From the NCBI GenBank assembly GCA_965213685.1, contig CBDBZY010000016.1:224001-288000 (forward strand): a stretch of 64,000 nucleotides of DNA. Direction: 5' to 3'. This document shows, piece by piece, positions 1-63,289 of this stretch. The position numbers and the translations under genes were made by a program. The notes below the pieces were generated by a model. It ran no database searches and had not been told where the DNA came from. It was given only the letters and a program-made list of their open reading frames with translations. The number at the start of each line of letters is the position of its first letter. The first letter of the stretch is position 1. The DNA comes from a bacterium. Its GTDB lineage: Bacteria > UBA8248.

Positions 1-631
1 AGCTGTTGGACCAGCAGCTGGTGAAGTGCTGGAGAAAGGCCACAGAGAACTGAACCAACTGGGAGACTCACTCAAGAGAATTCCTGGCCCACCTCGTAAG
101 GTGGAGGTCATTGGACGAGGGTCTGATCAAGTGAAGCTGAGCTGGCAACCTCCAAAGAAGAACCCTGAGGCTGCTGAGAGCTATGTGGTGTGGAAACAAG
201 AGGAGGGGAAGCAGTGGGAGAGGGTGAGGGAGACAAAGAAGACCAAAATCCTCATCACTGGACTGAAGTCAAAGACCGACTACCAGTTCAAAGTCACAGC
301 CACTAATGATCTGATTAAGAGTGTGGCTACAACACATGACTCATGTACAATGGAGTCAAAAGCTAAGATGGGAGCTATTGGTGGTGGTGGAGGAGCAGTT
401 GCATTTGCATTGTCTCCACTTTTAGGTTATCAGGCTATAACTGATGGAGACATGAGTACAAAAATAGTAGCCATATCAGTCGTCACTACACCAATCAGCC
501 TCATATGTGCTCCAGTTACTGCTACTGTGGGTGCAGTTTTGATTGCTAGGGAAATGATTAAGGAAAAATGCTACAGTGGAGACCTGTCCCCAGAGAGTGA
601 TGATGAGACGTCATGTGACTCCACAGAATGA
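1..631 (+). CDS. GBP-FN3-TM gene copy 1, 3' part only (starts before the window)
   Basis: The frame is open from the window start (AVGPAAGEVLEKG...). It covers the end of the helical region, FN3 (PGPP..VKLSWQPP..YVV..W..ITGLKS.T.YQFKVTATN), the hydrophobic hairpin and the GDLSPESDDETSCDSTE tail, collinear with the full copies. Confidence 0.9.
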   Translation, partial: AVGPAAGEVLEKGHRELNQLGDSLKRIPGPPRKVEVIGRGSDQVKLSWQPPKKNPEAAESYVVWKQEEGKQWERVRETKKTKILITGLKSKTDYQFKVTATNDLIKSVATTHDSCTMESKAKMGAIGGGGGAVAFALSPLLGYQAITDGDMSTKIVAISVVTTPISLICAPVTATVGAVLIAREMIKEKCYSGDLSPESDDETSCDSTE

Positions 632-1472
632 CATGGCAATACTCTATGGCTAGCTATAGCTGCTCTTGTGTGTACACGTTCATGTACTCTCATACCTGCC
701 ACAATAAACACAACATGCACATGTATTTTCATATAATTATTATATATGACATTGTGTTGGCATGGCAACAGCAGACCCTGAGTGAGCATCCATAGTGTGG
801 GTGGAGCCAGAGAGGTCACCAGTGGGTAGTACACACAGCAGTGATCATCACTGGTTGCCATGACGAGATGGCCTCTGTCCTTATTATGTAGTTGCCATGT
901 CCCTATGACATGTTGCTGTCTGTACTGGCTTCTGGTGCAATCTGATTGGTCATTTGATTCTTCTCATCACATGATTTGTTTGCATTGTCATGTGACTTGG
1001 TTTCTGAGTTCTGGTTGGTGGCTAAATGGTGGATGCTACTCAACTTCAGTGGCAAAGGTGTGAGGGGGGAGGGGTGAGGAGGGGAGGGGGAGGATGGGGA
1101 GGGTGATTGTGAGAGTCATTTTGCTCTTGTCAAACTTTGCTCTCCCATTGAGTTGGTCTACTGGGTAAGAGAGGGCCAGCTGGAATGAGTTAAGGGAGGG
1201 AGGGAAAGAGGGAGAGAGAGGAAGGAGAGGGAAAGGGAAAGAAAAAAGGGAGAGGGATGGAGGGACGGAGGGAGGGAGGAAGGGAGTGGGAAAGGGAAGG
1301 AAGAAAAGGAGAGGGAGGGAGGGGGAAAAGGGAGAGGAAGAGAGGGAGGGAAGGAGAGGGAGGGAGGGAGGGAGAAGGTAAGATGTTGCTAGGATACATC
1401 CAGGAGGTATGGTGGTGTTTTGTTCTGAAGTAGAAGTTCTCAAACACATCCAATTCCACATCTGCTGCAGAG

Positions 1473-1543
<71 letters not shown>

Positions 1544-2077
1544 TGTGCATGTGTGTGTGCGTGTGAAAAAGAAGAGAGAGAGAGAGAGAGGCTCACCTCC
1601 CCCCACACAGCCACCCTCCCCTCCACTCACCACTCCAGGCAGCTCCACACACACTACCATCTCCTTCGGTCTCCTCCCTCTCCTGGACACTCTGTCATTA
1701 GTGAAGTCCTTCATAGTAACCTCCCCTCTGTAGGTGAGGGTGTAGGATGGTTGGGGAGGGGAGGAGGAGGAGGGGGAGGAGGGGGAGGAGTGCTTTTTTC
1801 TTCTCTCTCTGTTCCTGTTGGTGGGTTTCTTCTCTTTTGTGGAGAAAATATAAAAGAGGAAGGAAGGGAGGGAGGGAGGGAGAGAGGGAGGCAGAGAGGA
1901 AGGGAGGTAGGGGAGAGAGGGAAGGGAGGTGGGGGAGAGAGGGAGGGAGGCAGGGAGAGAGAGTAGGTGGGAATATATACAGTTAGCATGATTGTGTATT
2001 TGTGGAATGTACAATGCAACACAACAATACTAGAGTTGCTAGGTTACCACATGAGGTCACTCACTCTGTGCTGTCTG

Positions 2078-2446
2078 CCCCTAGGCTGGCTAGCCTTAAA
2101 AATATGTGCTTCCCCTTATCCTGCCGCTAATAAGTACCAAGCTTCGGCTTGGTCTCCAAAGCAGACACAGGAATTCGAACTCTACCCTCAGGCCTCCCCC
2201 TTGGCAGAGTGGTTATGCGTTCCATCTGGTAAACAGATGAACGTGGGTTCGAATCCCGCAGTGGGAGCCAGTTTTTTTCCGGCAAGGAAAACTGGTGTCT
2301 GCTACAGATACGGAGCAGGAGTGGCCTTAGGTTCACAAAAACAGAGCATTTATGCCTAGTAGATTTAATTATAACACCCTGCATTTCATGCCTTCCATAT
2401 GCACGTGAGCCCGAGGCCCGGCCCCTAGGCTGGCTAGCCTTAAAAA
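2078..2446 (+). mobile_element. tRNA-containing non-autonomous insertion with short terminal direct repeats and 13-bp TSD
   Basis: Absent from the paralogous empty site (about 15893-15905). TSD tctgtgctgtctg at 2065-2077 and 2447-2459; direct repeat cccctaggctggctagccttaaaaa at both ends; internal A-box/B-box tRNA-like segment. Confidence 0.85.
2192..2270 (+). other. Degenerate tRNA(Thr)-like segment inside the insertion
   Basis: A-box tggcagagtggt, loop ctggtaa followed by acaga, B-box gggttcgaatccc, acceptor-like ctccc/gggag, ends in cca followed by a T7 run. Stems have mismatches. Confidence 0.6.
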
Positions 2447-2597
2447 TCTGTGCTGTCTGAGCTGAGGGGAGGGTATGGGATAGGGAATGGGAGGGAGGAG
2501 GAGGAGGAGGAGGAGGAGGAGGAGGAAGAGGTGGGGGAGGAGGAGAAGGAAGGAGAGGAGGCACCTTTGGACTGGAGGAGAGAGAGAAGAGAGACAG

Positions 2598-2650
<53 letters not shown>

Positions 2651-3127
2651 TTCTCCTTCTCTACTGGGTCAAATGTAAGGCCTGATGCCTACTAGACATG
2701 TGTGTAAATTCTGCATAATTATTCCTTTGGCACAAGCTTTCTAAATTTGGTAACAGTTGCATAGTACATTAAATCATGACAAAGCTTTCCCTTCATAACT
2801 CACTTTTGAATGCTTTTTCTTTTCCCTGATGACAGTTGGGTGTGGCTTGCCCTTATAAGGCAGCTTGAGGAACTTCATTTTGGCGGTGTCGACCTTTACC
2901 CCGTCCTTTGTCTCTATGGCTTCAATCACCGTGTCGATCAGCAGCTGCATGAACCTGGGATACTGGGGAGGGAGGGAAGGAGGGAGGGAAGGAGGGAGGG
3001 AGGGGGGAGGGGAAGGAGGGGAAGAGGGAAGAGAGGAGGAAAGGAGGGAGGGAGGGAGGGAGGGAGGGAGGGAGAAATTGGGGAAATGTGCAACACACCA
3101 CAAAACTTGGTCAGTAGTGATGTGTAC

Positions 3128-3648
3128 AGTTCTCAAGGCTAGGCACCCAGGGTCCTGCTTTCTTGTTTTGCCGTTTTGTATGTTGTGTCTTTTGTGTTTT
3201 ATGTGTGCACATATCCCACCTTGTACATTACTGCCACAGAGTGGGAGGAGGGTATGAACCATAATTCCCTCCCCTAGGCAACTTGTACAACTTGTAGGAA
3301 GTTATGGCTCATAATTTCCTCATCATGTAAATTTTGTAATGGGTCAGTGTGTTATGATGTACATCATGTACAAAATGTAAATTATTTATGTACATCATGT
3401 AAAAATTATAATGGGCTGGCATTCTTTCATGTATACTATGTACAGGCCATGTAGGCTGCAGTGACCAATCAGGTGGGATATATAATAGTAAGAGCCCGGT
3501 TGCCATGGACTTAAGGTCTAAAGCCACCCGAGTCCGAGGCGATAGCCCGAGGACAAGGAATGGTTTTTAATGTACGTGTACAATGGCTTGAGGTTCTTTC
3601 TCTTCTTTCTAACTTTTCTGTAGCTAGGATGCTATACACATGTTTTTC
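3128..3648. mobile_element. About 520-bp intronic insertion (putative non-autonomous element); second copy at about 28723-29240
   Basis: Present in kintoun copies 1 and 3, absent from the same intron in the other copies (e.g. near 16465). Internal inverted repeat atatcccacc/ggtgggatat. Boundaries approximate. Confidence 0.55.
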
Positions 3649-5418: not shown

Positions 5419-7120
<1,702 letters not shown>

Positions 7121-7203
7121 CCTGTGTATTGTGTCATTATCTGTACTACCACTATTACATCATGGTTTAAAATGACCACTATTACATCATGGTTTAAAAT
7201 TAC

Positions 7204-7230
7204 CAATCAAAACCTACTGCCCATATAAGG
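7204..7230 (+). promoter_or_regulatory. Putative CCAAT + TATA-like core promoter of type-A GBP copies
   Basis: ccaatc..ccatataagg about 140-165 bp before the ATG at 7370; paralogs show ccaatc..catataaag (near 40675-40700 and 31355-31380). Motif evidence only. Confidence 0.3.
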
Positions 7231-7369
7231 ATCCCCCGCTGCTACAACCCTGACATGAATATAATTATGGTTTGCTATGCTCAGCAATTCCATAACGTGT
7301 AGCAAGAGAGAAGCACTAGAAATCACCACTTTCTCATTGCCTCACTCCAGTACCAAACAGCTACCAGCG

Positions 7370-9484
7370 ATGGCTAAGAAGCAGGAAGTTCCCTCCCTCA
7401 CCCCTCGAGACCTCACCCTCCCTGGTAGGTCCCTCCCTCCTGCCATGCCCCTCATCATCTCCACCCAAGACAGCTGGGACCCTCACAGCTGCAAGCTGGA
7501 GACTCACCAGCACAACAGCCAACCACAACACCTACAGATAGTCACAGACACTCTACAACTGCTGGGAACCATCAACAAGCCTGTGGCTGTCCTGTCCATC
7601 TGTGGCCCCTACCGCTCGGGGAAGTCCTACTTCATCTCCCAACTGCTGGGCAGGCCTGAGGCCTTTCAGCTGGGCCACAGGATGCAAGCCTGTACACGTG
7701 GAATCTGGATGGCCACCACTGTCCTGGAGTGTGAGCAGTTTGTCACGATCTTGCTGGACACGGAAGGCATCGATGCCATTAGAGCCTCCGAGACCATGGC
7801 CATGAGCTTGCTGACTGTCACCACACTCCTCAGCTCCTACCTTATCTACAACTCCAAGAAGGTGCCCCAGAAGGTGGACCTGGACAAGATGAGGTGCTTC
7901 ACCCAGCTCTCCAGGTCTCTGCTTGTGCATAAAGGGGAATCCATGAGGGCAGAGGTCATGAGGAAGTTCTTCCCTCACTTTCTGTGGCTACTGCGAGATG
8001 TGACACTGAAAGTGACAGACAGAGTTGGCCAGAGCATCCCAGCCACTGAGTTCCTGCACACTCGTGTGCTGGCATCAGAAGCTGGCCAGCCTACAGAGCT
8101 GGGCAAGTCTCTTTGCAGCCTCTTCCCCTCACTGGAATGCCACACTCTTCCCATGCCAAGCATCAACCCCAAAGTCATCAAGAACATTGTGGAGCAACAG
8201 GACAAGCTCAAACCAGCATTCAACAAGGCAGTGGATCAACTGATCCAGCGAATCCTGCAGCAAGTCACGCCCAAGAAAGCCATCGATGGAGTGAGTGTGG
8301 TGGATGGCCCAGCTCTAGCTGCTCTGACCCGTGGGTATGTGGATGCCATCAACACACCAGGAGCAATACCAGACCTGGAACAAGGCTGGCAGGCTGTCAT
8401 CAAGTGGAAACTGAAGGAACTATCACACAAGCTAGTGGAAGAGTACAGGAGAGAGATGGAGGAATGTTTAGGAGACAATCTTCCCATGGAGGAGAGGAAT
8501 CTGATGAGAATCCACCAACAGACACTGAGCAGGAAAAGGGAGTCACTGCAGCAGGAGATCCGTCGACTCAAGCCATTGAGTTCCACCTCTGGAGACAAAG
8601 ACCCAGTCCTGAGTCAACTGGAGCAGGCAATCAGTCAGACAAACGAGGGGGGTGAGGTGATTGGGGGGGTCCTGTTCCAGTTCACCACTCACAACTACTC
8701 CAAGTCCAAGCAGCAGTGTGAAGAGGTGCTGGTGGAAGCAGTGAAGAGCAGTGGAATTCACAAGAAGTGTCAGGAAGCCTTCATCAACTCACAGCCACTG
8801 GACATAATGGCAGAGATACAGGAGATTGACAGGCAATACCACAGGCAAGCTGTTGGACCAGCAGCCAGTGAAGTGCTGGAGAAAGGCCACAGAGAACTGA
8901 ACCAACTGGGAGACTCACTCAAGAGAATTCCTGGCCCACCTAGTGAGGTGGAGGTCATTGGAAAGGCACCTGATCGAGTGAAGCTGAGCTGGCAACCTCC
9001 AAAGAAGAACCCTGAGGCTGCTGAGAGCTATGTGGTGTGGAAACAAGAGGAGGGGATGGAGTGGGAGAGGGTGAGGGAGACAAAGAAGACCAAAATCCTC
9101 ATCACTGGACTGAAGTCAGGGACAAAGTACCAGTTCAGAGTCACAGCCACTAATGACCTGATTAAGAGTGTGACTATAGCACAGGACTCACAGACATTGT
9201 GGTCAAAAGCTAAGATGGGAGCTATTGCTGGTGGTGCAGGAGCAATTGGTCTGTCTCTGATGCCAGTTGCACTTGCTATTCATGTTATGAGTGATAAAAA
9301 AATGAGTATAAAAATGGCAGTAGCCATATCAGTCGCCACTGCACCAATCAGCCTCATATGTACTCCAGTTACTGCTACTGTGGGTGGAGTTTGGTTTGCT
9401 AGGCAAATGATCAATTTGTGCTACCACAGTGGAGACCTGTCCCCAGAGAGTGATGATGAGACGTCATGTGACTCCACAGAATGA
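7370..9484 (+). CDS. GBP-FN3-TM protein copy 2 (type A N-terminus MAKKQEVP; ORF open from 7277)
   Basis: Intronless ORF with G1 GPYRSGKS, G2 CTRGIWM, G3 LLDTEG, G4 WLLRD, a GBP-like helical region, FN3 and two hydrophobic segments. Start choice is inferred. Confidence 0.92.
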   Translation: MAKKQEVPSLTPRDLTLPGRSLPPAMPLIISTQDSWDPHSCKLETHQHNSQPQHLQIVTDTLQLLGTINKPVAVLSICGPYRSGKSYFISQLLGRPEAFQLGHRMQACTRGIWMATTVLECEQFVTILLDTEGIDAIRASETMAMSLLTVTTLLSSYLIYNSKKVPQKVDLDKMRCFTQLSRSLLVHKGESMRAEVMRKFFPHFLWLLRDVTLKVTDRVGQSIPATEFLHTRVLASEAGQPTELGKSLCSLFPSLECHTLPMPSINPKVIKNIVEQQDKLKPAFNKAVDQLIQRILQQVTPKKAIDGVSVVDGPALAALTRGYVDAINTPGAIPDLEQGWQAVIKWKLKELSHKLVEEYRREMEECLGDNLPMEERNLMRIHQQTLSRKRESLQQEIRRLKPLSSTSGDKDPVLSQLEQAISQTNEGGEVIGGVLFQFTTHNYSKSKQQCEEVLVEAVKSSGIHKKCQEAFINSQPLDIMAEIQEIDRQYHRQAVGPAASEVLEKGHRELNQLGDSLKRIPGPPSEVEVIGKAPDRVKLSWQPPKKNPEAAESYVVWKQEEGMEWERVRETKKTKILITGLKSGTKYQFRVTATNDLIKSVTIAQDSQTLWSKAKMGAIAGGAGAIGLSLMPVALAIHVMSDKKMSIKMAVAISVATAPISLICTPVTATVGGVWFARQMINLCYHSGDLSPESDDETSCDSTE

Positions 9485-9840
9485 CGTGACAATACTCTAT
9501 GGCTAGCTACAGCTGCTCTTGTGTGTACACGTTCACGTACTCTCATACCTGCCACAATACACACAACATGCACATGTATTTTGATATGGAGTGGATGTAA
9601 CTGACAAGGACAGTTATTATCAATAAAAGCCTTGTTTATATGACATTGTTAGCATGACATTGTGTTGGCATGGCAACAGCATATAAATGAGAACCCATCA
9701 GTAGTGTGGGTGGAGCCAGAGAGGTCACCAGTGGGTAGCACACACAGCAGTGATCATCACTGGTTGTCATGACGAGATGGGCCCCTGTCATCAACCACAA
9801 TTATTATGGAGTTGCCATGTCCCCAGCCACAGAGCAATGC

Positions 9841-9937
9841 TAGCCTCATTCCCAGGCCTTCCCCCACATGACAGCACAACACCACACCCAGCATGGTGGA
9901 GTGCTTGTGTGTGGGGGGCAGTCTGGGAAGAAGGCTA
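9841..9937. mobile_element. Old TAGCCTC..GGCTA-type MITE (paralogs near 27643, 44697, 57386, 60252, 63640)
   Basis: Ends tagcctcattcccagg / ctgggaa(c/g)aaggcta with degenerate 9-bp flanking repeats gagcaatgc/gagtgatgt. Confidence 0.6.
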
Positions 9938-10879
9938 GAGTGATGTGGATTGAATGACCATAAACTAATTATCATACACTGTACATGTAGTGGTGAGTGT
10001 TATGAGCACCGCTAGTGATGAGTATCATGACTTGTGTTCCTCTGTGGTGACTGAGTGTTGAGGTGATTGTGGTTCTCTCGGCCTGATCCACAGCAGCGGG
10101 AACATTCCAATCAAACATCTGATGATGATACCAGCACAGCGACCCTGAGACGAGGGAAGAGGAGGATGAGAAAGAGAGTGAGTACATTAAAACACCAGAG
10201 AAAGGAAGGAGAGAGGCAGGCAGGCAGGCAGGCAGACAAGCAACCAAGCAAGTAGGCAGATAGACAGACAGACAGACAGACAACTGTATCCACTTCAGGA
10301 GAGAAACTTCATAGATGCCATAGGGTGGGTAGTATACACAACATTTTGGCTATTATGCCCCCCTCAGTGTGATGTACAAACACGAGAAAGAGGTGCTCTA
10401 TATTGAGGGTGACTATTAATGGCTGAGCCAGCATGCCAGGTACTACAGAGCAAGGTTAATTAGGATGCGGAGATAAAATTATGACAAGCATTGTAACATG
10501 CTGACAGGAGTTGTGCATGCACAATGCATCACAGACTATCAACGCTGAGGTTCATGCCTGTGAGATGAGAGGTCCCCAGGAGCCTTTATATCCACTTGCT
10601 CTCCCAAAAAAACACCTGGAGACCTCTCATCCCAATGTGATAGCGAAGGAACCCCCCAGAGTGAAATTTGGGGTCCCCGGGAATATCATTCTCTCCAGAG
10701 CGCTAGCAAGGCACACACATATCCACTGTCACTGAGCACGACTGCACCCCATGCCACAGTATCATACATGCCACAATAAACAGAACTCAGAACCACTAAT
10801 CGTAACTAAAAGTAGTTTACCAAAAATTGCGAGTAGGGGCAGAGCCTGGGAACGAGCCTAGGCTAACATGGCCTCCCTC

Positions 10880-32347: not shown

Positions 32348-34474
32348 ATGGCTGCCTGTGGAGACACAGTTGAGAAAGCTGCCTCCTCCCTCACCCCTCG
32401 AGACCTCACCCTCCCTGGTAGGTCCCTCCCTCCTGCCATGCCCCTCATCATCTCCACCCAAGACAGCTGGGACCCTCACAGCTGCAAGCTGGAGACTCAC
32501 CAGCACAACAGCCAACCACAACACCTACAGATAGTCACAGACACTCTACAGCTGCTGGGAACCATCAACAAGCCTGTGGCTGTCCTGTCCATCTGTGGTC
32601 CCTACCGCTCGGGGAAATCCTACTTCATCTCCCGACTGCTGGGCAGGCCTGGGGCCTTTCAGCTGGGCCACAGGATGCAAGCCTGTACACGTGGAATCTG
32701 GATGGCCACCACTGTCCTGGAGTGTGAGCAGTTTGTCACAATCTTGCTGGACACGGAAGGCATTGATGCCATTAGAGCCTCTGAGACCATGGATGCAAGC
32801 TTGCTGACTGTCACCACACTCCTCAGCTCCTACCTCATCTACAACTCCATGAAGGTGCCCCAGAAGGTGGACCTGGACAAGATGAGGTGCTTCACACAGC
32901 TCTCCAGGTCTCTGCTCGTGCAGAAAGGGAAGTCCATGAGGGCAGAGGTCATGAGGAAGTTCTTCCCTCACTTTCTGTGGCTACTGCGAGATGTGACACT
33001 GAAAGTGACAGACAGAGCCGGCCAGACCATCTCAGCCACTGAGTTCCTGCACACTCGTGTGCTGGCATCACAATCTGGCCAGCCTACAGAGCTGGGCAAG
33101 TCTCTTTGCAGCCTCTTCCCCTCACTGGAATGCCACACTCTTCCCATGCCAAGTATCAACCCCAAAGTCATCAAGAACATTGTGGAGCAACAGGACAAGC
33201 TGAAACCAGCATTCAACAAGGCAGTGGATGAGCTGATCCAGCGAATCCTGTAGCAAGTCACGCCCAAGAAAGCCATCGATGGAGTGAGTGTGGTGGATGG
33301 CCCAGCTCTAGCTGCTCTGACCCATGGCTATGTGGATGCCATCAACACACCAGGAGCAATACCAGACCTGGAACAAGGCTGGCAGGCCGTCATCAAGTGG
33401 AAACTAAAGGAACTATCAGACAAGCTAGTGGAGGAGTATAGGAGAGAGATGGAGGAATGTTTAGCAGACAATCTTCCCATGGAGGAGAGGAATCTGATGA
33501 GAATCCACAAACAGACACTGAGCAGGAAAAGGGAGTCACTGCAGCAGGAGATCCGTCGACTCAAGCCATTGAGTTCCACCTCTGGAGACAAAGACCCAAT
33601 CCTGAGTCAACTGGAGCAGGCAATCAGTCAGACAAACGAGGGGGGCGAGGTGATTGGGGGGGTCCTGTTCCAGTTCACCACTCACAACTACTCCAAGTCC
33701 AAGCAGCAGTGTGAAGAGGTGCTGATGGAAGCAGTGAAGAGCAGTGGAATTCACAAAAAGTGTCAAGAAGCCTTCATCAACTCACAGCCACTGGACATAA
33801 TGGCAGAGATACAGGAGATTGACAGGCAATACCACAGGCAAGCTGTTGGACCAGTAGCCAGTGAAGTGCTGGAGAAAGGCCACAGAGAACTGAACCAACT
33901 GGGAGACTCACTCAAGAGAATTCCTGGCTCACCTGGTGAGGTGGAGGTCATTGGAAAGGGATCTGATCGAGTGAAGCTGAGCTGGCAACCTCCAGAGAAG
34001 AACCCTGAGGCTGCTGAGAGCTATGTGGTGTGGAAACAAGAGGAGGGGAAGCAGTGGGAGAGGCTGAGGGAGACAAAGAAGACCAAAATCCTCATCACTG
34101 GACTGAAGTCAGACACAGACTACCAGTTCAGAATCACAGCCACTAATGACCTGATTAAGAGTGTGGCTACAACACAGAACTCATATACAAGGGAGTCAAA
34201 AGCTAAGATGGGAGCTCTTGGTGGTGGTTTTGGAGCACTTGCATTTGCATTGTCCCCAGTTTTAGGTTATCAGGCTATGACTGATGGAGACATGAGTGGA
34301 GGAAAAATAGTAGCCATATCACTCGCCACTGCACCAATCAGCCTCATATGTGCTCCAGTTACTGCTACTGTGGGTGCAGTTGTGTTTGGTAGGGAAACGG
34401 TCAAGCAATGCTGCTACAGTGGAGACCTGTCCCCAGAGAGTGATGATGAGACGTCATGTGACTCCACAGAGTGA
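32348..34474 (+). pseudogene. GBP-FN3-TM copy 6 (type B) with a premature stop
   Basis: CAG>TAG at 33251-33253; the frame continues intact to 34474. Confidence 0.88.
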
Positions 34475-40618: not shown

Positions 40619-40845
40619 CCTGTGTATTGTGCCATTATATGTACTACCACTATTACATCATGGTTTAAAATGACCAATCAAAACTCACTGCCCATATAAA
40701 GATGAAAAATTCCCCCTGCTGTTACAACCCTGACATGTAATTATGGTTTGCTATGCTCAGCAATTCCATAACGTGTAGCAAGAGAGAAGCACTAGAAATC
40801 ACCACTTTCTCATTGCCTCACTCCAGTACCAAACAGCTACCAGCG

Positions 40846-42951
40846 ATGGCTAAGAAGCAGGAAGTTCCCTCCCTCACCCCTCGAGACCTCACCCTCCCTG
40901 GTAGGTCCCTCCCTCCTGCCATGCCCCTCATCATCTCCACCCAAGACAGGTGGGACCCTCACAGCTGCAAGCTGGAGACTCACCAGCACAACAGCCAACC
41001 ACAACACCTACAGCTAGTCACAGACACTCTACAACTGCTGGGAACCATCAACAAGCCTGTGGCTGTCCTGTCCATCTGTGGTCCCTACCGCTCGGGGAAG
41101 TCCTACTTCATCTCCCGACTGCTGGGCAGGCCTGGGGCCTTTCAGCTGGGCCACAGGATGCAAGCCTGTACACGTGGAATCTGGATGGCCACCACTGTCC
41201 TGGAGTGTGAGCAGTTTGTCACAATCTTGCTGGACACGGAAGGCATTGATGCCATTAGAGCCTCCGAGACCATGGATGCGAGCTTGCTGACTGTCACCAC
41301 ACTCCTCAGCTCCTACCTCATCTACAACTCCATGAAGGTGCCCCAGAAGGTGGACCTGGACAAGATGAGGTGCTTCACCCAGCTCTCCAGGTCTCTGCTT
41401 GTGCAGAAAGGGGAGTCCATGAGGGCAGAGGTCATGAGGAAGTTCTTCCCTCACTTTCTGTGGCTACTGCGAGACGTGACACTGAAAGTGACAGACAGAG
41501 CCGGCCAGACCATCTCAGCCACTGAGTTCCTGCACACTCGTGTGCTGGCCTCACAATCTGGCCAGCCTACAGAGCTGGGCAAGTCTCTTTGCAGCCTCTT
41601 CCCCTCACTGGAATGCCACACTCTTCCCATGCCAAGCATCAACCCCAATGTCATCAAGAACATTGTGGAGCAACAGGACAAGCTGAAACCAGCATTCAAC
41701 AAGGCAGTGGATGAGCTGATCCAGCGAATCCTGCAGCAAGTCACGCCCAAGAAAGCCATCGATGGAGTGAGTGTGGTGGATGGCCCAGCTCTAGCTGCTC
41801 TGACCCGTGGCTATGTGGATGCCATCAACACACCAGGAACAATACCAGACCTGGAACAAGGCTGGCAGGCCGTCATCAAGTGGAAACTGAAGGAACTATC
41901 AGACAAGCTAGTGGAGGAGTACAGGAGAGAGATGGAGGAATGTTTAGGAGAAAATCTTCCCATGGAGGAGAGGAATCTGATGAGAATCCACCAACAGACA
42001 CTGAGCAGGAAAAGAGAGTCACTGCAGCAGGAGATCCGTCGACTCAAGCCATTGAGTTCCACCTCTGGAGACAAAGACCCAATCCTGAGTCAACTGGAGC
42101 AAGCAATCAGTCAGACAAACGAGGGGGGTGAGGTGATTGGGGGGGTCCTGTTCCAGTTCACCACTCAGAATTACTCCAAGTCCAAGCAGCAGTGTGAAGA
42201 GGTGCTGATGGAAGCAGTGAAGAGCAGTGGAATTCACAAGAAGTGTCAAGAAGCCTTCATCAACTCACAGCCACTGGACATAATGGCAGAGATACAGGAG
42301 ATTGAGAGGCAATACCACAGCCAAGCTGTTGGACCAGCAGCCAGTGAAGTGCTGGAGAAAGGCCACAGAGAACTGAACCAACTGGGAGACTCACTCAAGA
42401 GAATTCCTGGCCCACCTAGTGAGGTGGAGGTCGTTGGACAGGGACCTGATCGAGTGAAGCTGAGCTGGCAACCTCCAGAGAAGAATCCTGAGGCTGCTGA
42501 GAGCTATGTGGTGTGGAAACAAGAGGGGAAGCAGTGGGAGAGGGTGAGGGAGACAAAGAAGACCAAAATCCTCATCACTGGACTGAAGTCAAACACAAAG
42601 TACCAGTTCAGAGTCACAGCCACTAATGACCTGATTAAGAGTGTGGCTGCAACACAGGGCTCAGAGACAATGTGGTCAAAAGCTAAGATGGGAGCTATTG
42701 CTGGTGGTGCAGGAGCAATTGGTCTGTCTCTGATGTCAGTTGCACTTGCTATTGTTATGAGTGATAAAAAAATGAGTATAATAATGGCAGTAGCCATATC
42801 AGTCGCCACTGCACCAATCAGCCTCATATGTGCTCCAGTTACTGCTACTGTGGGTGGAGTTTGGTTCGCTAGGGAGTTGATAAAGGAGTGTGAATGGGGA
42901 GACCTGTCCCCAGAGAGTGATGATGAGACGTCATGTGACTCCACAAAATGA
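40846..42951 (+). CDS. GBP-FN3-TM protein copy 7 (type A N-terminus, mosaic; ORF open from 40753)
   Basis: Open ORF with all motifs; single-codon deletions in FN3 (KQEGKQ) and in the hairpin loop. Confidence 0.92.
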   Translation: MAKKQEVPSLTPRDLTLPGRSLPPAMPLIISTQDRWDPHSCKLETHQHNSQPQHLQLVTDTLQLLGTINKPVAVLSICGPYRSGKSYFISRLLGRPGAFQLGHRMQACTRGIWMATTVLECEQFVTILLDTEGIDAIRASETMDASLLTVTTLLSSYLIYNSMKVPQKVDLDKMRCFTQLSRSLLVQKGESMRAEVMRKFFPHFLWLLRDVTLKVTDRAGQTISATEFLHTRVLASQSGQPTELGKSLCSLFPSLECHTLPMPSINPNVIKNIVEQQDKLKPAFNKAVDELIQRILQQVTPKKAIDGVSVVDGPALAALTRGYVDAINTPGTIPDLEQGWQAVIKWKLKELSDKLVEEYRREMEECLGENLPMEERNLMRIHQQTLSRKRESLQQEIRRLKPLSSTSGDKDPILSQLEQAISQTNEGGEVIGGVLFQFTTQNYSKSKQQCEEVLMEAVKSSGIHKKCQEAFINSQPLDIMAEIQEIERQYHSQAVGPAASEVLEKGHRELNQLGDSLKRIPGPPSEVEVVGQGPDRVKLSWQPPEKNPEAAESYVVWKQEGKQWERVRETKKTKILITGLKSNTKYQFRVTATNDLIKSVAATQGSETMWSKAKMGAIAGGAGAIGLSLMSVALAIVMSDKKMSIIMAVAISVATAPISLICAPVTATVGGVWFARELIKECEWGDLSPESDDETSCDSTK

Positions 42952-46865: not shown

Positions 46866-48990
46866 ATGGCTGCCTATGGAGACACAGTTGAGAAAGCTGC
46901 CTCCTCCCTCACCCCTCGAGACCTCACCCTCCCTGGTAGGTCCCTCCCTCCTGCCATGCCCCTCATCATATCCACCCAAGACAGGTGGGACCCTCACAGC
47001 TGCAAGCTGGAGACTAACCAGCACAACAGCCAACCACAACACCTACAGATAGTCACAGACACTCTACAGCTGCTGGGAACCATCAACAAGCCTGTGGCTG
47101 TCCTGTCCATCTGTGGTCCCTACCGCTCGGGGAAATCCTACTTCATCTCCCGACTGCTGGGCAGGCCTGGGGCCTTTCAGCTGGGCCACAGGATGCAAGC
47201 CTGTACACGTGGAATCTGGATGGCCACCACTGTCCTGGAGTGTGAGCAGTTTGTCACAATCTTGCTGGACACGGAAGGCATTGATGCCATTAGAGCCTCT
47301 GAGACCATGGATGCAAGCTTGCTGACTGTCACCACACTCCTCAGCTCCTACCTCATCTACAACTCCATGAAGGTGCCCCAGAAGGTGGACCTGGACAAGA
47401 TGAGGTGCTTCACACAGCTCTCCAGGTCTCTTGCAGAAAGGGGAGTCCATGAGGGCAGAGGTCATGAGGAAGTTCTTCCCTCACTTTCTGTGGCTACTGC
47501 GAGACGTGACACTGAAAGTGACAGACAGAGCCGGCCAGACCATCTCGGCCACTGAGTTCCTGCACACTCGTGTGCTGGCATCACAATCTGGCCAGCCTAC
47601 AGAGCTGGGCAAGTCTCTTTGCAGCCTCTTCCCCTCACTGGAATGCCACACTCTTCCCATGCCAAGCATCAACCCCAAAGTCATCAAGAACATTGTGGAG
47701 CAACAGGACAAGCTGAAACCAGCATTCAACAAGGCAGTGGATCAACTGATCCAGCGAATCCTGCAGCAAGTCACGCCCAAGAAAGCCATCGATGGAGTGA
47801 GTGTGGTGGATGGCCCAGCTCTAGCTGCTCTGACCCGTGGCTATGTGGATGCCATCAACACACCAGGAGCAATACCAGACCTGGAACAAGGCTGGCAGGC
47901 CGTTATCAAGTGGAAACTGAAGGAACTATCAGACAAGCTAGTGGAGGAGTACAGGAGAGAGATGGAGGAATGTTTAGGAGACAATCTTCCCATGGAGGAG
48001 AGGAATCTGATGAGAATCCACCAACAGACACTGAACAGGAAAAGGGAGTCACTACAGCAGGAGATCCGTCGACTCAAACCATTGAGTTCCACCTCTGGAG
48101 ACAAAGACCCAATCCTGAGTCAACTGGAGCAGGCAATCAGTCAGACAAACGAGGGGGGTGAGGTGATTGGGGGGGTCCTGTTCCAGTTCACCACTCACAA
48201 CTACTCCAAGTCCAAGCAGCAGTGTGAAGAGGTGCTGATGGAAGCAGTGAAGAGCAGTCGAATTCACAAAAAGTGTCAAGAAGCCTTCATCAACTCACAA
48301 CCACTGGACATAATGGCAGAGATACAGGAGATTGACTGGCAATACCACAGGCAAGCTGTCGGACCAGCAGCCAGTGAAGTGCTGGAGAAAGGCCACAGAG
48401 AACTGAACCAACTGGGAGACTCACTCAAGAGAATTCCTGGCCCACCTAGTGAGGTGAGCGACATTGGACAGGGACCTGATCGAGTGAAGCTGAGCTGGCT
48501 ACCTCCAGAGAAGAACCCTGAGGCTGCTGAGAGCTATGTGGTGTGGAAACAAGAGGAGGGGAAGCAGTGGGAGAGGCTGAGGGAGACAAAGAAGACCAAA
48601 ATCCTCATCACTGGACTGAAGTCAGAGACAAAGTACCAGTTCAGAGTAACAGCCACTAATGACCTGATTAAGAGTGTGGATACAACACAAGCTTCATGGA
48701 CAAATGAGTCAAAAGCTAAGATAGGAGCTCTTGGTGGTGGAGTAGGAGCAGGTTTATTTCTATTGGCCCCAGTTGCAAGTACTATTTGGGCTGTCACTGG
48801 TGAAGACATGATTACAAGAAAAGGAGTAGCCATATCAGTCGCCACTGCACCACTCAGCCTCATATGTGCTCCAGTTACTGTTCCTGTGGGTGGGGTTTGG
48901 CTTGCTAGGACAGCGATCAAGGGTACGTGTGAATGGGGAGACCTGTCCCCAGAGAGTGATGATGAGACATCACGTGACTCCACAGAATGA
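46866..48990 (+). pseudogene. GBP-FN3-TM copy 8 (type B) with a frameshift
   Basis: 5-nt deletion (gctcg) after 47431 splits the gene into ORFs 46866-47555 and 47431-48990. Confidence 0.88.
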
Positions 48991-54651: not shown

Positions 54652-54909
54652 CCTGCGTATTGTGCCATTATCTGTACTGCCACTATTACATCATGGTTTA
54701 AAATTATCTGTACTACCACTATTACATCATGGTTTAAAATTACCAATCAAAACCTACTGCCCATATAAGGATCCCCTGCTGCTACAACCCTGACATGAAT
54801 ATAATTATGGTTTGCTATGCTTAGCAATTCTATAACGTGTAGCAAGAGAGAAGCACTAGAAATCACCACTTTCTCATTGCCTCGCTCCAGTACCAAACAG
54901 CTACCAGCG

Positions 54910-57024
54910 ATGGCTAAGAAGCAGGAAGTTCCCTCCCTCACCCCTCGAGACCTCACCCTCCCTGGTAGGTCCCTCCCTCCTGCCATGCCCCTCATCATCT
55001 CCACCCAAGACAGGTGGGACCCTCACAGCTGCAAGCTGGAGACTCACCAGCACAACAGCCAACCACAACACCTACAGCTAGTCACAGACACTCTACAGCT
55101 GCTGGGAACCATCAACAAGCCTGTGGCTGTCCTGTCCATCTGTGGCCCCTACCGCTCAGGGAAGTCCTACTTCATCTCCCGACTGCTGGGCAGGCCTGGG
55201 ACCTTTCAGCTGGGCCACAGGATGCAAGCCTGTACACGTGGAATCTGGATGGCCACCACTGTCCTGGAGTGTGAGCAGTTTGCCATAATAATGCTAGATA
55301 CAGAAGGTATCGATGCCATTAGAGCCTCTGAGACCATGGCCATGAGCTTGCTGACTGTCACCACACTCCTCAGCTCCTACCTTATCTACAACTCCAAGAA
55401 GGTGCCCCAGAAGGTGGACCTGGACAAGATGAGGTGCTTCACCCAGCTCTCCAGGTCTCTGCTCATGCAGAAAGGGGAGTCCATGAGGGCAGAGATCATG
55501 AGGAAGTTCTTCCCTCACTTTCTGTGGCTACTGCGAGATGTGACACTGAAAGTGACAGACAGAGTTGGCCAGACCATCTCAGCCACTGAGTTCCTGCACA
55601 CTCGTGTGCTGGCATCAGAAGCTGGCCAGCCTACAGAGCTGGGCAAGTCTCTTTGCAGCCTCTTCCCCTCACTGGAATGCCACACTCTTCCCATGCCAAG
55701 CATCAACCCCAAAGTCATCAAGAACATTGTGGAGCAACAGGACAAGCTGAAACCAGCATTCAACAAGGCAGTGGATCAACTGATCCAGCGAATCCTGCAG
55801 CAAGTCACGCCCAAGAAAGCCATCGATGGAGTGAGTGTGGTGGATGGCCCAGCTCTAGCTGCTCTGACCCGTGGCTATGTGGATGCCATCAACACACCAG
55901 GAGCAATACCAGGCCTGGAACAAGGCTGGCAGGCTGTCATCAAGTGGAAACTGAAGGAACTATCACACAAGCTAGTGGAGGAGTACAGGAGAGAGATGGA
56001 GGAATGTTTAGGAGACAATCTTCCCATGGAGGAGAGGAATCTGATGAGAATCCACCAACAGACACTGAGCAGGAAAAGAGAGTCACTGCAGCAGGAGATC
56101 CGTCGACTCAAGCCATTGAGTTCCACCTCTGGAGACAAAGACCCAGTCCTCAGTCAACTGGAGCAGGCAATCAGTCAGACAAACGAGGGGGGTGAGGTGA
56201 TTGGGGGGGTCCTGTTCCAGTTCACCACTCACAACTACTCCAAGTCCAAGCAGCAGTGTGAAGAGGTGCTGGTGGAAGCAGTGAAGAGCAGTGGAATACG
56301 CAAGAAGTGTCAGGAAGCCTTCATCACCTCACAGCCACTGGACATAATGGCAGAGATACAGGAGATTGAGAGGCAATACCACAGGCAAGCTGTTGGACCA
56401 GCAGCCAGTGAAGTGCTGGAGAAAGGCCACAGAGAACTGAACCAGCTGGGAGACTCACTCAAGAGAATTCCTGGCCCACCTAGTGAGGTGGAGGTCGTTG
56501 GAAAGGGACCTGATCGAGTGAAGCTGAGCTGGCAACCTCCAGAGAAGAACCCTGAGGCTGCTGAGAGCTATGTGGTGTGGAAACAAGAGGAGGGGATGGA
56601 GTGGGAGAGGGTGAGGGAGACAAAGAAGACCAAAATCCTCATCACTGGACTGAAGTCAGGGACAAAGTACCAGTTCAGAGTCACAGCCACTAATGACCTG
56701 ATTAAGAGTGTGACTATAACACAGGACTCACAGACATTGTGGTCAAAAGCTAAGATGGGAGCTATTGCTGGTGGTGCAGGAGCAATTGGTCTGTCTCTGA
56801 TGCCAGTTGCACTTGCTATTCATGTTATGAGTGATAAAAAAATGAGTATAAAAATGGCAGTAGCCATATCAGTCGCCACTGCACCAATCAGCCTCATATG
56901 TGCTCCAGTTACTGCTACTGTGGGTGGAGTTTGGTTTGCTAGGCAAATGATCAATTTGTGCTACCACAGTGGAGACCTGTCCCCAGAGAGTGATGATGAG
57001 ACGTCATGTGACTCCACAGAATGA
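54910..57024 (+). CDS. GBP-FN3-TM protein copy 9 (type A; ORF open from 54817), closest to copy 2
   Basis: Open ORF with all motifs. Confidence 0.92.
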   Translation: MAKKQEVPSLTPRDLTLPGRSLPPAMPLIISTQDRWDPHSCKLETHQHNSQPQHLQLVTDTLQLLGTINKPVAVLSICGPYRSGKSYFISRLLGRPGTFQLGHRMQACTRGIWMATTVLECEQFAIIMLDTEGIDAIRASETMAMSLLTVTTLLSSYLIYNSKKVPQKVDLDKMRCFTQLSRSLLMQKGESMRAEIMRKFFPHFLWLLRDVTLKVTDRVGQTISATEFLHTRVLASEAGQPTELGKSLCSLFPSLECHTLPMPSINPKVIKNIVEQQDKLKPAFNKAVDQLIQRILQQVTPKKAIDGVSVVDGPALAALTRGYVDAINTPGAIPGLEQGWQAVIKWKLKELSHKLVEEYRREMEECLGDNLPMEERNLMRIHQQTLSRKRESLQQEIRRLKPLSSTSGDKDPVLSQLEQAISQTNEGGEVIGGVLFQFTTHNYSKSKQQCEEVLVEAVKSSGIRKKCQEAFITSQPLDIMAEIQEIERQYHRQAVGPAASEVLEKGHRELNQLGDSLKRIPGPPSEVEVVGKGPDRVKLSWQPPEKNPEAAESYVVWKQEEGMEWERVRETKKTKILITGLKSGTKYQFRVTATNDLIKSVTITQDSQTLWSKAKMGAIAGGAGAIGLSLMPVALAIHVMSDKKMSIKMAVAISVATAPISLICAPVTATVGGVWFARQMINLCYHSGDLSPESDDETSCDSTE

Positions 57025-61465: not shown

Positions 61466-63289
61466 ATGGCTGCCTCTGGAGCCACAGCTGAGGATGTTAG
61501 TGCCTCCTCCCTCACCCCTCGAGACCTCACCCTCCCTGGTAGGTCCCTCCCTCCTGCCATGCCCCTCATCATCTCCACCCAAGACAGGTGGGACCCTCAC
61601 AGCTGCAAGCTGGAGACTCACCAGCACAACAGCCAACCACAATACCTACAGCTAGTCACAGACACTCTACAACTGCTGGGAACCATCAACAAGCCTGTGG
61701 CTATCCTGTCCATCTGTGGCCCCTACCGCTCAGGGAAGTCCTACTTCATCTCCCGACTGCTGGGCAGGCCTGGGGCCTTTCAGCTGGGCCACAGGATGCA
61801 AGCCTGTACACGTGGAATCTGGATGGCCACCACTGTCCTGGAGTGTGAGCAGTTTGCCATAATCCTGCTGGACACGGAAGGCATTGATGCCATTGGAGCC
61901 TCCGAGACCATGGCCATGAGCTTGCTGACTGTCACCACACTCCTCAGCTCCTACCTCATCTACAACTCCAAGAAGGTGCCCCAGAAGGTGGACCTGGACA
62001 AGATGAGGTGCTTCACCCGGCTCTCCAGGTCTCTGCTCGTGCAGAAAGGGGAGTCCATGAGGGCAGAGGTCATGAGGGAGTTCTTCCCTCACTTTCTGTG
62101 GCTACTGCGAGATGTGACACTGACTGTGACAGACAGAGCCGGCCAGACCATCTCAGCCACTGAGTTCCTGCACACTCGTGTGCTGGCATCACAGTCTGGC
62201 CAGCCTACAGAGCTGGGCAAGTCTCTTTGCAGCCTCTTCCCCTCACTGGAATGCCACACTCTTCCTATTCCAAGCATCAACCCCAAAGTCATCAAGAACA
62301 TTGTGGAGCAACAGGACAAGCTGAAACCAGCATTCAACAAGGCAGTGGATGAGCTGATCCAGCGAATCCTGCAGCAAGTCACGCCCAAGAAAGCCATCGA
62401 TGGAGTGAGTGTGGTGGATGGCCCGGCTCTAGCTGCTCTGACCCGTGGGTATGTGGATGCCATCAACACACCAGGAGCAATACCAGACCTGGAACAAGGC
62501 TGGCAGGCCATCATCAAGTGGAAACTGAAGGAACTATCAGACAAGCTAGTGGAGGAGTACAGGAGAGAGATGGAGGAATGTTTAGGAGACAATCTTCCCA
62601 TGGAGGAGAGGAATCTGATGAGAATCCACCAACAGACACTGAGCAGGAAAAGGGAGTCACTGCAGCAGGAGATCCGTCGACTCAAGCCATTGAGTTCCAC
62701 CTCTGGAGACAAACACCCAGTCCTGAGTCAACTGGAGCAGGCAATCAGTCAGACAAACGAGGGGGGTGAGGTGATTGGGGGGGTCCTGTTCCGCTGGCAA
62801 CCTCCAGAGAAGAACCCTGAGGCTGCTGAGAGCTATGTGGTGTGGAAACAAGAGGAGGGGAAGCAGTGGGAGAGGGTGAGGGAGACAAAGAAGACCAAAA
62901 TCCTCATCACTGGACTGAAGTCAGACACAGACTACCAGTTCAGAATCACAGCCACTAATGACCTGATTAAGAGTGTGGCTGCAACACATGACTCATGTAC
63001 AATGGAGTCAAAAGCTAAGATGGGAGCTCTTGCTGGTGGTGTAGGAGCAATTACATTGTCAATGATGCCAGTTGCAGCAGCTATTGCGAATGTGACTGCT
63101 GAAGACATGAGTGGAGGAAAAATAGTAGCCATATCAGTCGCCACTTTACCAATTAGCCTCATATGTGCTCCAGTTATTGCTACTGTGGGTGGAGTTTGGA
63201 TTGCTAGGGAAGTGATCAAGGACGGATGCTACAGTGGAGACCTGTCCCCAGAGAGTGATGATGAGACGTCATGTGACTCCACAGAATGA
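61466..63289 (+). CDS. GBP-FN3-TM protein copy 10 (unique N-terminus MAASGATAEDVSA) with an in-frame 309-bp deletion
   Basis: Open ORF; junction GGVLF|RWQPP near 62792 removes 103 codons of distal helical region and the start of FN3. Confidence 0.85.
   Translation: MAASGATAEDVSASSLTPRDLTLPGRSLPPAMPLIISTQDRWDPHSCKLETHQHNSQPQYLQLVTDTLQLLGTINKPVAILSICGPYRSGKSYFISRLLGRPGAFQLGHRMQACTRGIWMATTVLECEQFAIILLDTEGIDAIGASETMAMSLLTVTTLLSSYLIYNSKKVPQKVDLDKMRCFTRLSRSLLVQKGESMRAEVMREFFPHFLWLLRDVTLTVTDRAGQTISATEFLHTRVLASQSGQPTELGKSLCSLFPSLECHTLPIPSINPKVIKNIVEQQDKLKPAFNKAVDELIQRILQQVTPKKAIDGVSVVDGPALAALTRGYVDAINTPGAIPDLEQGWQAIIKWKLKELSDKLVEEYRREMEECLGDNLPMEERNLMRIHQQTLSRKRESLQQEIRRLKPLSSTSGDKHPVLSQLEQAISQTNEGGEVIGGVLFRWQPPEKNPEAAESYVVWKQEEGKQWERVRETKKTKILITGLKSDTDYQFRITATNDLIKSVAATHDSCTMESKAKMGALAGGVGAITLSMMPVAAAIANVTAEDMSGGKIVAISVATLPISLICAPVIATVGGVWIAREVIKDGCYSGDLSPESDDETSCDSTE

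Follow-up and report, generated by a model that had tools for sequence, protein, structure and literature searches.

A tandem array of GBP-like GTPase genes with a diversified FN3 and predicted membrane-hairpin module on a probable sponge contig

GBPs are central cell-autonomous defence proteins in vertebrates. Their GTPase domain is marked by a P-loop of the form G-x-x-R-x-GKS with an internal arginine, by a DxxG motif, and by a G4 motif (T/L)(L/V)RD; a C-terminal CaaX prenylation box is a feature of GBP1, GBP2, and GBP5 only. Atlastins are conserved housekeeping proteins of endoplasmic reticulum (ER) fusion, which occur in one or few copies and have both ends of a two-helix anchor on the same side. 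TRIM5alpha-type factors join a cytosolic β-sandwich domain (B30.2/SPRY) with a few positively selected surface patches to a conserved effector part, and sea-urchin Sp185/333, snail FREPs, and Hydractinia Alr are tandem families with mosaic blocks, recombination, and diversifying selection. According to a 2022 review (PMC9005921), the presence and role of GBPs in invertebrates are "still unclear". In the full-text literature, whose coverage leaves out most subscription journals, no description of a GBP-FN3-transmembrane protein or of sponge GBP arrays was found. Here, we analyze a window of 64,000 nucleotides (nt; contig CBDBZY010000016.1 of assembly GCA_965213685.1, positions 224,001 to 288,000), which is part of a tandem array of GBP-like genes on a contig most likely derived from a sponge. 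The focus is the array copy P0001 (7277..9484, plus strand; 735 amino acids (aa) from the first ATG, according to the translated list of open reading frames (ORFs)) and its FN3 domain. Three patches of this domain are hypervariable among the copies, and they form the first part of a larger variable module which reaches into the predicted membrane anchor.

The GTPase domain of P0001 (residues 85-331; 7529..8269, plus strand) matches the GBP-type profile PF02263 with 129.9 bits (cut-off 21.1). All 23 aligned copies have the motifs GPYRSGKS, DTEG, and LLRD without change, and CTRGIW is found in 21 of them; judged by the domain and these G motifs, P0001 is a member of the GBP family. The best Foldseek matches were GBP5, GBP1, and GBP2 (E-values between 2e-20 and 1e-15, 20-27% identity), followed by atlastin-1 and RNF112 at about 1e-11 (1.4e-11 for atlastin-1, as compared to 2e-20 for the GBPs). 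Similarly, phmmer gave about 1e-30 for GBP1, GBP2, and GBP5 and 6.7e-8 for atlastin-1. Atlastin was considered as closest relative and ruled out, as both sequence and structure scores are much nearer the GBPs. The helical stalk follows at residues ~339-548 (8291..8920, plus strand; PF02841, 38.1 bits, cut-off 24.3; helices 344-548 in the model); the GBP_C match (residues 339-417) covers only its start, namely profile positions 2-78 of 297. The FN3 domain occupies residues 552-643 (8930..9205, plus strand) and is scored by PF00041 with 43.2 bits (cut-off 25; residues 554-627). The AF2 model, which is based on 55 homologues and has a mean pLDDT of 75.6, contains the GTPase domain, the stalk up to residue ~548, the FN3 domain, and helices at 644-673 and 678-714. 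According to DSSP, the modeled FN3 domain has seven strands with a pLDDT of about 90 (556-563, 567-573, 584-591, 597-602, 606-610, 617-625, 634-639); W572 and Y618 are invariant in the array. Pfam score and predicted seven-strand sandwich thus agree in identifying the domain as FN3.

Two membrane helices are predicted behind the FN3 domain. The first one, which is rich in glycine and alanine and has a proline in the middle, makes up residues 647-679 together with a short loop (9215..9313, plus strand); in this region, the model has helices at 644-660 and 662-673, and 19-residue segments reach Kyte-Doolittle scores of 1.4-2.0. The second predicted helix (residues 680-708; 9314..9400, plus strand; model helix 678-714) is strongly conserved (SVATAPISLICAPVTATVGGVW) and is the top hydrophobic 19-mer in most copies. 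In 22 of the 23 copies, the two C-terminal helices are the two most hydrophobic 19-mers (Kyte-Doolittle scores 1.4-2.4). A variable juxtamembrane stretch (residues 709-718; 9401..9430, plus strand) leads to a conserved acidic tail, GDLSPESDDETSCDSTE (residues 719-735; 9431..9481, plus strand), and to the stop codon at 9482-9484. No CaaX box was found at the C-terminus, where the copies end in ...SCDSTE. Because no hydrophobic N-terminus or signal peptide was seen in the copies, and because the flanks of the hairpin carry lysine and arginine, the GTPase domain, the FN3 domain, and the tail would face the cytosol and a loop of ~8-12 residues would lie on the far side. A cytosolic location of the FN3 domain is therefore probable. 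The closest solved FN3 domains found by phmmer are those of titin A77-A78 (1.1e-11) and myomesin-1 (2.3e-9), and also MyBP-C; extracellular ones such as those of Robo2 (1.3e-7) and fibronectin (1.9e-4) score lower, which faintly hints at an FN3 domain of the intracellular kind. A two-copy complex prediction for residues 545-735 gave a score of 0.00 (mark 0.42), which speaks neither for nor against self-association.

In order to locate the variation, we aligned the codons of 23 copies, intact or nearly so, gathered along the entire contig; the alignment comprises 712 codon columns. The region singled out in a first-pass annotation of the window, 8930-9214, corresponds to codons 552-646 of ORF 7277-9484, i.e. 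to the Pfam fn3 match and the first residues beyond. A pattern scan of the plus strand of the window detected nine FN3 copies starting with IPG.P (nt 80, 8927, 13553, 22450, 26338, 33920, 42403, 48433, and 56467), and all strings which the annotation had listed after IPG(P/S)P, GLKS, and IKSV were recovered in these. The mean minimum number of amino-acid changes per column is 0.24 for the 505 upstream columns, 2.64 for the 25 patch columns, and 0.29 for the other 68 FN3 columns. For the 92 columns after the FN3 domain, which comprise the first membrane helix, the loop, and the juxtamembrane stretch, it is 1.90. Hence, the concentration of FN3 variability in three patches is borne out; the FN3 domain is, however, not the sole variable unit. 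The upstream part is not wholly invariant either: it varies at scattered sites, with at least 121 nonsynonymous and 105 synonymous changes.

Patch A is formed by the A strand and the AB turn (residues 556-565; 8942..8971, plus strand; selected sites S556, V560, K563, and P565), patch B by the end of the EF loop and the first residue of strand F (residues 615-617; 9119..9127, plus strand; selected sites G615 and K617, with T616 fixed), and patch C by the end of the FG loop and strand G (residues 633-642; 9173..9202, plus strand; selected sites T633, I634, D637, Q639, and L641). The columns of high entropy are 556, 559, 560, 563, and 565 in A, 615 and 617 in B, and 633, 634, 637, 639, 641, and 642 in C; the strands between the patches are almost fixed. 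The combination of patches is unique in each of the 23 copies, with 22 distinct haplotypes for A, 12 for B, and 20 for C. Nucleotide diversity was computed in 45-nt windows of the 23-copy alignment and is given at positions of the focus copy. It is 0.004-0.09 from 7405 to 8900, rises to 0.139 in patch A, drops to 0.013-0.022 in the next 135 nt (8974-9108), and reaches 0.10-0.17 at 9109-9240, which includes patches B and C. The most variable stretch of the gene is the first membrane helix with the loop (0.34-0.35), followed downstream by 0.06-0.07 for the second helix, 0.27 for the juxtamembrane stretch, and 0.03-0.08 for the tail and the start of the 3' flank. The membrane hairpin is thus at least as variable as the FN3 domain; its first helix retains the glycines but varies at the residues in between.

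The strands assigned to the patches by the first-pass annotation agree with DSSP, which places strand A at 556-563 with a turn at 564-566, a loop at 611-616, the start of F at 617, and G at 634-639. In the FN3 topology, the C-terminal pole is where the AB and EF loops and the last part of G are located. F is paired with G in a hairpin; strand A is part of the other sheet and sits on the edge where G is found. As the next helix of the model starts at residue 644, the C-terminal pole would adjoin the membrane anchor. Patches B and C should be neighbours, since the lower half of the F/G hairpin places 617-621 beside 637-641; patch A is predicted to lie on the other sheet. Between residues 636 and 641 of patch C, every second position is variable (637, 639, and 641) and those in between are conserved (636, 638, and 640), which fits one exposed face.

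Pooled Nei-Gojobori dN/dS values are 0.34 for GTPase domain and stalk (505 codons, dS 0.066), 0.45 for the FN3 scaffold (dS 0.046), 2.41 for the patches (dN 0.304, dS 0.126), 4.28 for patch C (dS 0.068), 1.65 for the post-FN3 part (dS 0.168), and 0.23 for the tail (dS 0.077). Between scaffold and patches, dN rises about 15-fold (0.0205 vs 0.304) and dS about 2.7-fold (0.046 vs 0.126). The proposal that the patches are under positive selection is therefore upheld: dN/dS is above 1, and synonymous divergence is not raised to an equal degree. A codon bootstrap gave confidence intervals (CI) of 1.18-2.30 for the post-FN3 value of 1.65 and of 1.10-1.90 for the value of 1.43 determined for FN3 and post-FN3 together. 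Tree-free minimum numbers of nonsynonymous and synonymous changes are 66:11 for the patches, 34:2 for patch C, and 49:4 for 11 sites selected by the codon models described below; they are 121:105 for the upstream 505 codons and 20:18 for the FN3 scaffold. The patch ratio differs from the upstream ratio (Fisher, 3e-7) and from a neutral ratio of 2.5-3.0 (binomial p 0.003-0.0075). Five FN3 columns have at least five minimum nonsynonymous changes; with omega = 1 and the synonymous rate of the domain itself, 0.14 such columns would be expected. Among recent sisters, which form four groups, the patch columns contain 11 nonsynonymous and no synonymous changes, as compared to 93:70 elsewhere in the gene (Fisher, 0.0028).

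Codon site models point to the same positions. For the FN3 domain, the comparison of M1a and M2a gave 2ΔlnL = 150.6 with omega = 11.9 on 12.6% of the sites; the M7/M8 comparison, which had been suggested as a check, gave 153.9, and the M8a/M8 comparison gave 152.8. Eleven FN3 sites have P > 0.9 (556, 560, 563, 565, 615, 617, 633, 634, 637, 639, and 641). At these sites, the variation is at codon positions 1 and 2, and the third base hardly changes: the seven amino acids found at residue 637, for instance, all have a codon ending in C (GAC, CAC, AAC, GGC, CGC, TGC, TAC). For the post-FN3 part, M1a/M2a gave 144.0 with omega = 5.4 on 34% of the sites, M2a sites occur in the first membrane helix and its loop, and those of the juxtamembrane stretch are found at alignment columns 672-688. 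Five control blocks of 93 codons from GTPase domain and stalk, each with its own tree, gave 2ΔlnL values of 1.2, 0.6, 9.2, 12.8, and 10.2; the FN3 statistic is more than ten times that of these blocks of equal length.

The pattern recurs in other assemblies. The FN3 entropy profiles of two paralogue sets from elsewhere correlate with the profile of this array (Spearman 0.48 and 0.47, p ~1e-6), and the 11 selected sites are about 2.4 times as variable in these sets as the other FN3 sites. In a consensus of 55 sequences, most patch positions and much of the first membrane helix and loop have no majority residue.

We consider it probable, though well short of certain, that the locus is a diversified array of membrane-anchored GBPs which serves innate immune or symbiont-handling recognition by means of a variable FN3-hairpin module on a conserved GTPase. 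The domain architecture, the array, the distribution of variability, the excess of replacements, and the recombination are observed, whereas topology, recognition, and an immune role are what the proposal adds. The tandem array of intronless genes for GBP-like GTPases, predicted to be membrane-anchored, belongs to a eukaryotic, most likely sponge, genome. GTPase domain and stalk would be kept near-identical between the copies by purifying selection together with recombination or gene conversion, whereas about 11 FN3 residues and the first membrane helix, loop, and juxtamembrane stretch would be driven apart by diversifying selection; therefore, each copy would present a different membrane-proximal surface. 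The variable module might then pick a target at or in the membrane, on which the conserved GTPase would act. The patches may bind ligands, and we infer that recognition in innate immunity or in the handling of symbionts is the most likely function. A more specific version, which we put forward tentatively, is a sponge germline repertoire of "sensor-effector" GBPs with ~25 copies per array, each of which would sense a different feature of microbial or vacuolar membranes from the cytosol, and perhaps also via the short luminal loop.

Several points weigh against this proposal. The dN/dS value of the whole FN3 domain is 1.27 with a bootstrap CI of 0.79-1.96, so that the domain in its entirety is not above 1; the patch columns were picked by amino-acid variability, which biases patch-only ratios upward. 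The site models were computed with an implementation of our own, in which branch lengths were fixed to the nucleotide tree and scaled by a single factor. The 505-codon block of GTPase domain and stalk also rejects M1a (2ΔlnL 76.6, omega 5.0 on 5% of the sites), and of the five short control blocks, three reach nominal significance (2ΔlnL 9-13). Because of these control results, the p-values of the likelihood-ratio tests should not be taken at face value: either they are inflated by recombination or selection is also scattered upstream. In 11 independent nearest pairs, the proportion of synonymous differences (pS) is 0.083 in the patches and 0.014 in the scaffold, a factor of 6, and the ratio pN/pS of the patches is only 1.46. 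Part of the patch divergence is for this reason old or imported mosaic sequence which escaped homogenization. Variability shows no significant helix (100 degrees) or strand (180 degrees) periodicity (p 0.08-0.4), and the post-FN3 columns contain indels, so that their alignment is uncertain. The replication in other paralogue sets is at the protein level and uses cluster representatives. Finally, the membrane helices are predicted from hydropathy and the AF2 model, and the first one is weak in some copies. Within these caveats, the signal of diversifying selection in the patches is solid. Note that eight upstream alignment columns (18, 40, 273, 304, 352, 366, 449, and 473) have omega above 1 in both the 505-codon block and the short blocks; selection may extend beyond the FN3-hairpin module.

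The same signature of selection would arise if the copies diversified in order to avoid something rather than to recognize it, namely if microbial effectors gripped or modified the variable surface. Bacterial targeting of GBPs is known, and the complex of human GBP1 with the bacterial ligase IpaH9.8 is among the structural matches (6loj, 6k2d). However, the target in this complex is a vertebrate GBP which lacks both the FN3 domain and the hairpin, and we know of no antagonist of a FN3-hairpin GBP family. Escape from antagonists, which is indistinguishable from recognition on the present data, seems to us an unlikely explanation.

Recombination between the copies is evident. The GTPase, FN3, and post-FN3 segments give conflicting trees: copy g92794, for example, groups upstream with g11960 and g112856, and downstream with g40741 (96-99% bootstrap). 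The genes have four or more 5' types, which are joined to different hairpin types; one hairpin type occurs with different FN3 patches, and the identity of the spacers between the genes (82-96%) brackets the dS values of the variable parts. If the patches merely consisted of tolerant positions which escaped gene conversion and kept old differences, no positive selection would be needed; the 2.7-fold dS of the patches, the sixfold pS in nearest pairs, the evident recombination, and a CI for the whole FN3 domain that includes 1 all fit such relaxed constraint, and tolerant positions would vary in other species, too. Yet omega cannot exceed 1 under neutrality, and values of 2.41 for the patches and 4.28 for patch C were found. 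Nor does relaxed constraint predict 66:11 changes where the neutral ratio is 2.5-3.0, the 11:0 changes among recent sisters, five columns with at least five replacements instead of 0.14, or third codon positions which stay largely fixed while positions 1 and 2 change. As a sole cause we judge relaxed constraint to be unlikely. Two processes are visible: a homogenized scaffold in which old or imported patches survive, and an excess of replacements on top of it.

The extension of the variability into a membrane helix, whose glycines are kept, brings to mind a paralogue-specific code for assembly or targeting, in which the FN3 edge and the glycine- and alanine-rich first helix would determine which copies co-assemble or which organelle membrane they enter. 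Both GBPs and atlastins function in oligomeric form (8r1a and 8cqb are oligomer entries among the structural matches), and the variability moment of the first helix is best at 95 degrees. This periodicity is, however, not significant (p 0.08-0.11). Moreover, codes of this kind are usually under purifying selection once they are set, whereas an omega of ~12 at 11 sites and replacements between sisters of 97% identity point to continuing change. We give such a code little credence, too.

The assembly record is filed as a prokaryotic genome. The contig which holds the window (C16 in the following) has a GC content of 50%, and 52% of its bases lie in long ORFs, whereas about 50 contigs of the same assembly have 61-69% GC with 77-100% (mostly 94-100%) of the bases in long ORFs. 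Contigs C64, C18, C41, C16, C51, C7, and some smaller ones form the group with 42-54% GC, where long ORFs make up 10-64% of the bases. Relatives of the focus gene were found in none of 41 genomes of the same bacterial family. Parts of the region 7000-9700 are present in 20 sequencing runs from 11 studies, eight of which runs are labelled "sponge metagenome" while the others have coded names, and the ICAP-1-like gene next to the focus copy has a GT..AG intron. On the basis of the GC and coding split, the empty family search, the sponge-labelled runs, and the neighbouring intron, the window is read as part of a eukaryotic host contig mis-binned into a bacterial assembly, the host being most likely a sponge; a bacterial origin of the array is ruled out by the contrast between the contigs and the 0 of 41 related genomes. 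That we are dealing with an artefact, be it a family of bacterial genes or a few genes duplicated in assembly, so that the copies would not be true paralogues, is hardly conceivable despite the filing of the record, as C16 contrasts with the densely coding bacterial contigs of ~65% GC, the 41 related genomes lack the gene, the neighbour's intron is joined out in one run, parts of the stretch recur in 20 runs from 11 studies, and the copies differ from one another throughout, including their 5' ends and spacers. The assembly as a whole is a chimeric bin which consists of densely coding bacterial contigs of ~65% GC and ~5 Mb of sparsely coding host contigs with 42-54% GC; its total of 7.97 Mb compares with 2.9-4.6 Mb for bacterial genomes of the same genus. 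Users should be aware that the locus sits inside a record filed as a bacterial genome.

The array spans about 200 kb of C16 (178.7-375.5 kb) and consists of intronless genes on one strand. The 23 intact or nearly intact ORFs have lengths of 702-788 aa from stop to stop, and two of them lack the last 6-11 residues; at least six further copies are broken or partial due to in-frame stops, a frameshift, an internal deletion, or fragmentation. The spacers between the 23 copies are 1.5-18.5 kb long and are themselves repeated at 82-96% identity. The window has eight ORFs with an ATG start and a length of 400 aa or more; each of them lies on the plus strand, and all are paralogues. The following copies, on the plus strand where a strand is assigned, surround P0001: the 3' end of the preceding copy with its FN3 domain (IPGPP at nt 80) and hairpin (2..631), a paralogue whose tail is truncated by a stop by 11 residues (11981..14068), intact paralogues at 20848..23007, 24544..26895 (likely start MAQNPDS at about nt 24781), and 40753..42951, and a paralogue with a single in-frame TAG at about 33251-33253, whose FN3 domain begins with IPGSP (32348..34474). 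They are followed by a lone C-terminal fragment with 98% identity to the focus copy (43778-44335; no strand assigned), a paralogue split over two frames by a frameshift near 47400-47555 (46866..48990), an intact paralogue with 97% identity to the focus copy (54817..57024), and a paralogue in which an in-frame internal deletion removes the end of the stalk and FN3 strands A-B (61466..63289).

For the focus gene, the ATG at 7370 (MAKKQEV...) is the likely start, as other copies begin with MAQNPD..., MAAC..., or MAAS... just before the conserved SLTPRDL. The 23 copies have at least four N-terminal or 5' types (MAKKQEV..., MAASGATAEDVSASS..., MAACGDTVEKAASS..., and MAQNPDVPS...), which all meet the conserved body at the same point, at about nt 7400 of the window, and are reassorted with the hairpin types. 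This sharp 5' edge of near-identity could be the edge of a conversion tract or reflect alternative promoters. At the other end of the gene, the contigs of four of four examined runs either break at 9426-9437 or carry unrelated sequence just upstream of it; here the variable juxtamembrane stretch gives way to the conserved acidic tail GDLSPESDDE, whose GDL(S/T)P is kept in distant homologues. Outside the array, a diverged relative (51-89% identity, with pieces in different frames) is found on host contig C64 (1589043-1590856), together with a small fragment (C64:301014-301399); the relative may be an intron-bearing or a decayed founder copy.

Two other genes neighbour the GBP-like copies. On the minus strand, ORF pieces at 1039-3262 match the PIH1 N-terminal (PF08190, 6e-10) and PIH1 CS-like (PF18201, ~1e-5) profiles, which looks like a multi-exon PIH1-domain gene between two GBP-like copies. 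On the plus strand, the last two exons (6470-6706 and 7019-7120) of an ICAP-1/ITGB1BP1-like PTB-domain gene (PF10480, 1.1e-10) are separated by the GT..AG intron 6707-7018, and the gene ends with a TAG directly upstream of the focus gene. Among the 20 runs which hold parts of the region, none is on record as RNA. Two of them, X17 and X18, whose RNA nature is only guessed, have contigs on the focus ORF (e.g. 8177-8761 for X17 and 7441-7722 for X18). In one contig of X17, position 6704 is joined to 7017, with GT..AG ends; this removes the last intron of the ICAP-1-like gene, so that the run does contain spliced sequence. In the contig-level data of the runs, allelic differences merge with cross-mapping among paralogues. 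X17 and X18 have no cover at 6000-6535, 9618-10000, and 9216-9349; such absence proves nothing. Taken together, these contigs hint faintly at transcription of the focus gene.

A search with the protein found 187 homologues with E ≤ 0.001; among the 120 listed ones, identity is 44-90%, most have all three Pfam domains, and all those outside the contig are proteins of metagenome assemblies. Among genome contigs, 82 pattern matches for DNA relatives were obtained, none of which was confirmed. In metagenome contigs, 23 related loci were detected, which are all distant (23-49% identity) and were not used. When the C-terminal 191 residues served as query, 8049 matches with E ≤ 0.001 resulted, and the 150 listed ones are mainly giant multi-FN3 proteins, which say little about the architecture. 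In a protein atlas, the best scores were 0.75-0.81, below the 0.9 level; the nearest entries (0.80-0.81) are mollusc proteins with a septin/AIG1-type GTPase and fn3. As a lead, this may mean that fusions of GTPases with FN3 domains arose more than once in invertebrates.

If the recognition proposal holds, the array is a testable candidate for the intracellular sorting of microbes in animals with dense microbial communities, and it would represent a route to GBP target specificity which vertebrate GBPs do not use. If the more specific sensor-effector version were true, an early-branching animal would use the array to distinguish symbionts from pathogens in a cell-autonomous manner. Target recognition by GBPs would then be solved in a new way, with recombination keeping the engine uniform and reshuffling the pieces of the sensor. 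With respect to the first-pass annotation, its observation is confirmed and its interpretation in part: positive selection and the strand assignment stand, a single ligand-binding surface made up of all three patches is a possibility, and the FN3 domain as the variable unit has to be replaced by the larger module.

Among known systems, the vertebrate interferon-inducible GBP1, GBP2, and GBP5 are most similar. They share with the array protein the PF02263 GTPase domain, the arginine-bearing P-loop, DTEG, the RD motif, and, according to the model, a helical stalk, and they, too, form multigene clusters, for which the 2022 review (PMC9005921) describes birth-and-death evolution. In contrast, identity is only 20-27%, the stalk of the array protein is shorter and matches GBP_C only at its start, and an FN3 domain with a predicted two-helix hairpin takes the place of the CaaX box. 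Moreover, the array has ~30 near-identical copies in a probable sponge, and its variability clusters in the added module. Atlastins and RNF112 resemble the array protein in the succession of a GBP-type GTPase domain, a helical bundle, and two adjacent membrane helices, which in the array protein are predicted. However, they have no FN3 domain and form no diversified array, and similarity is far weaker than to the GBPs (7e-8 vs 1e-30). Judged by these scores, the array protein is much nearer the GBPs than the atlastins, although its predicted anchor resembles the atlastin hairpin.

The FN3 domains of titin, myomesin, and MyBP-C are the closest solved ones in sequence, but they are structural repeats in long chains, for which no hypervariable patches have been reported. 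The remaining parallels are analogies. TRIM5alpha-type factors are not homologous: fold family and effector are different, and TRIM5alpha has no membrane anchor. Sp185/333, FREPs, and Alr are secreted or extracellular proteins, whereas the array protein joins its variable domain, which probably points towards the cytosol and the membrane interior, to a GTPase predicted to be cytosolic.

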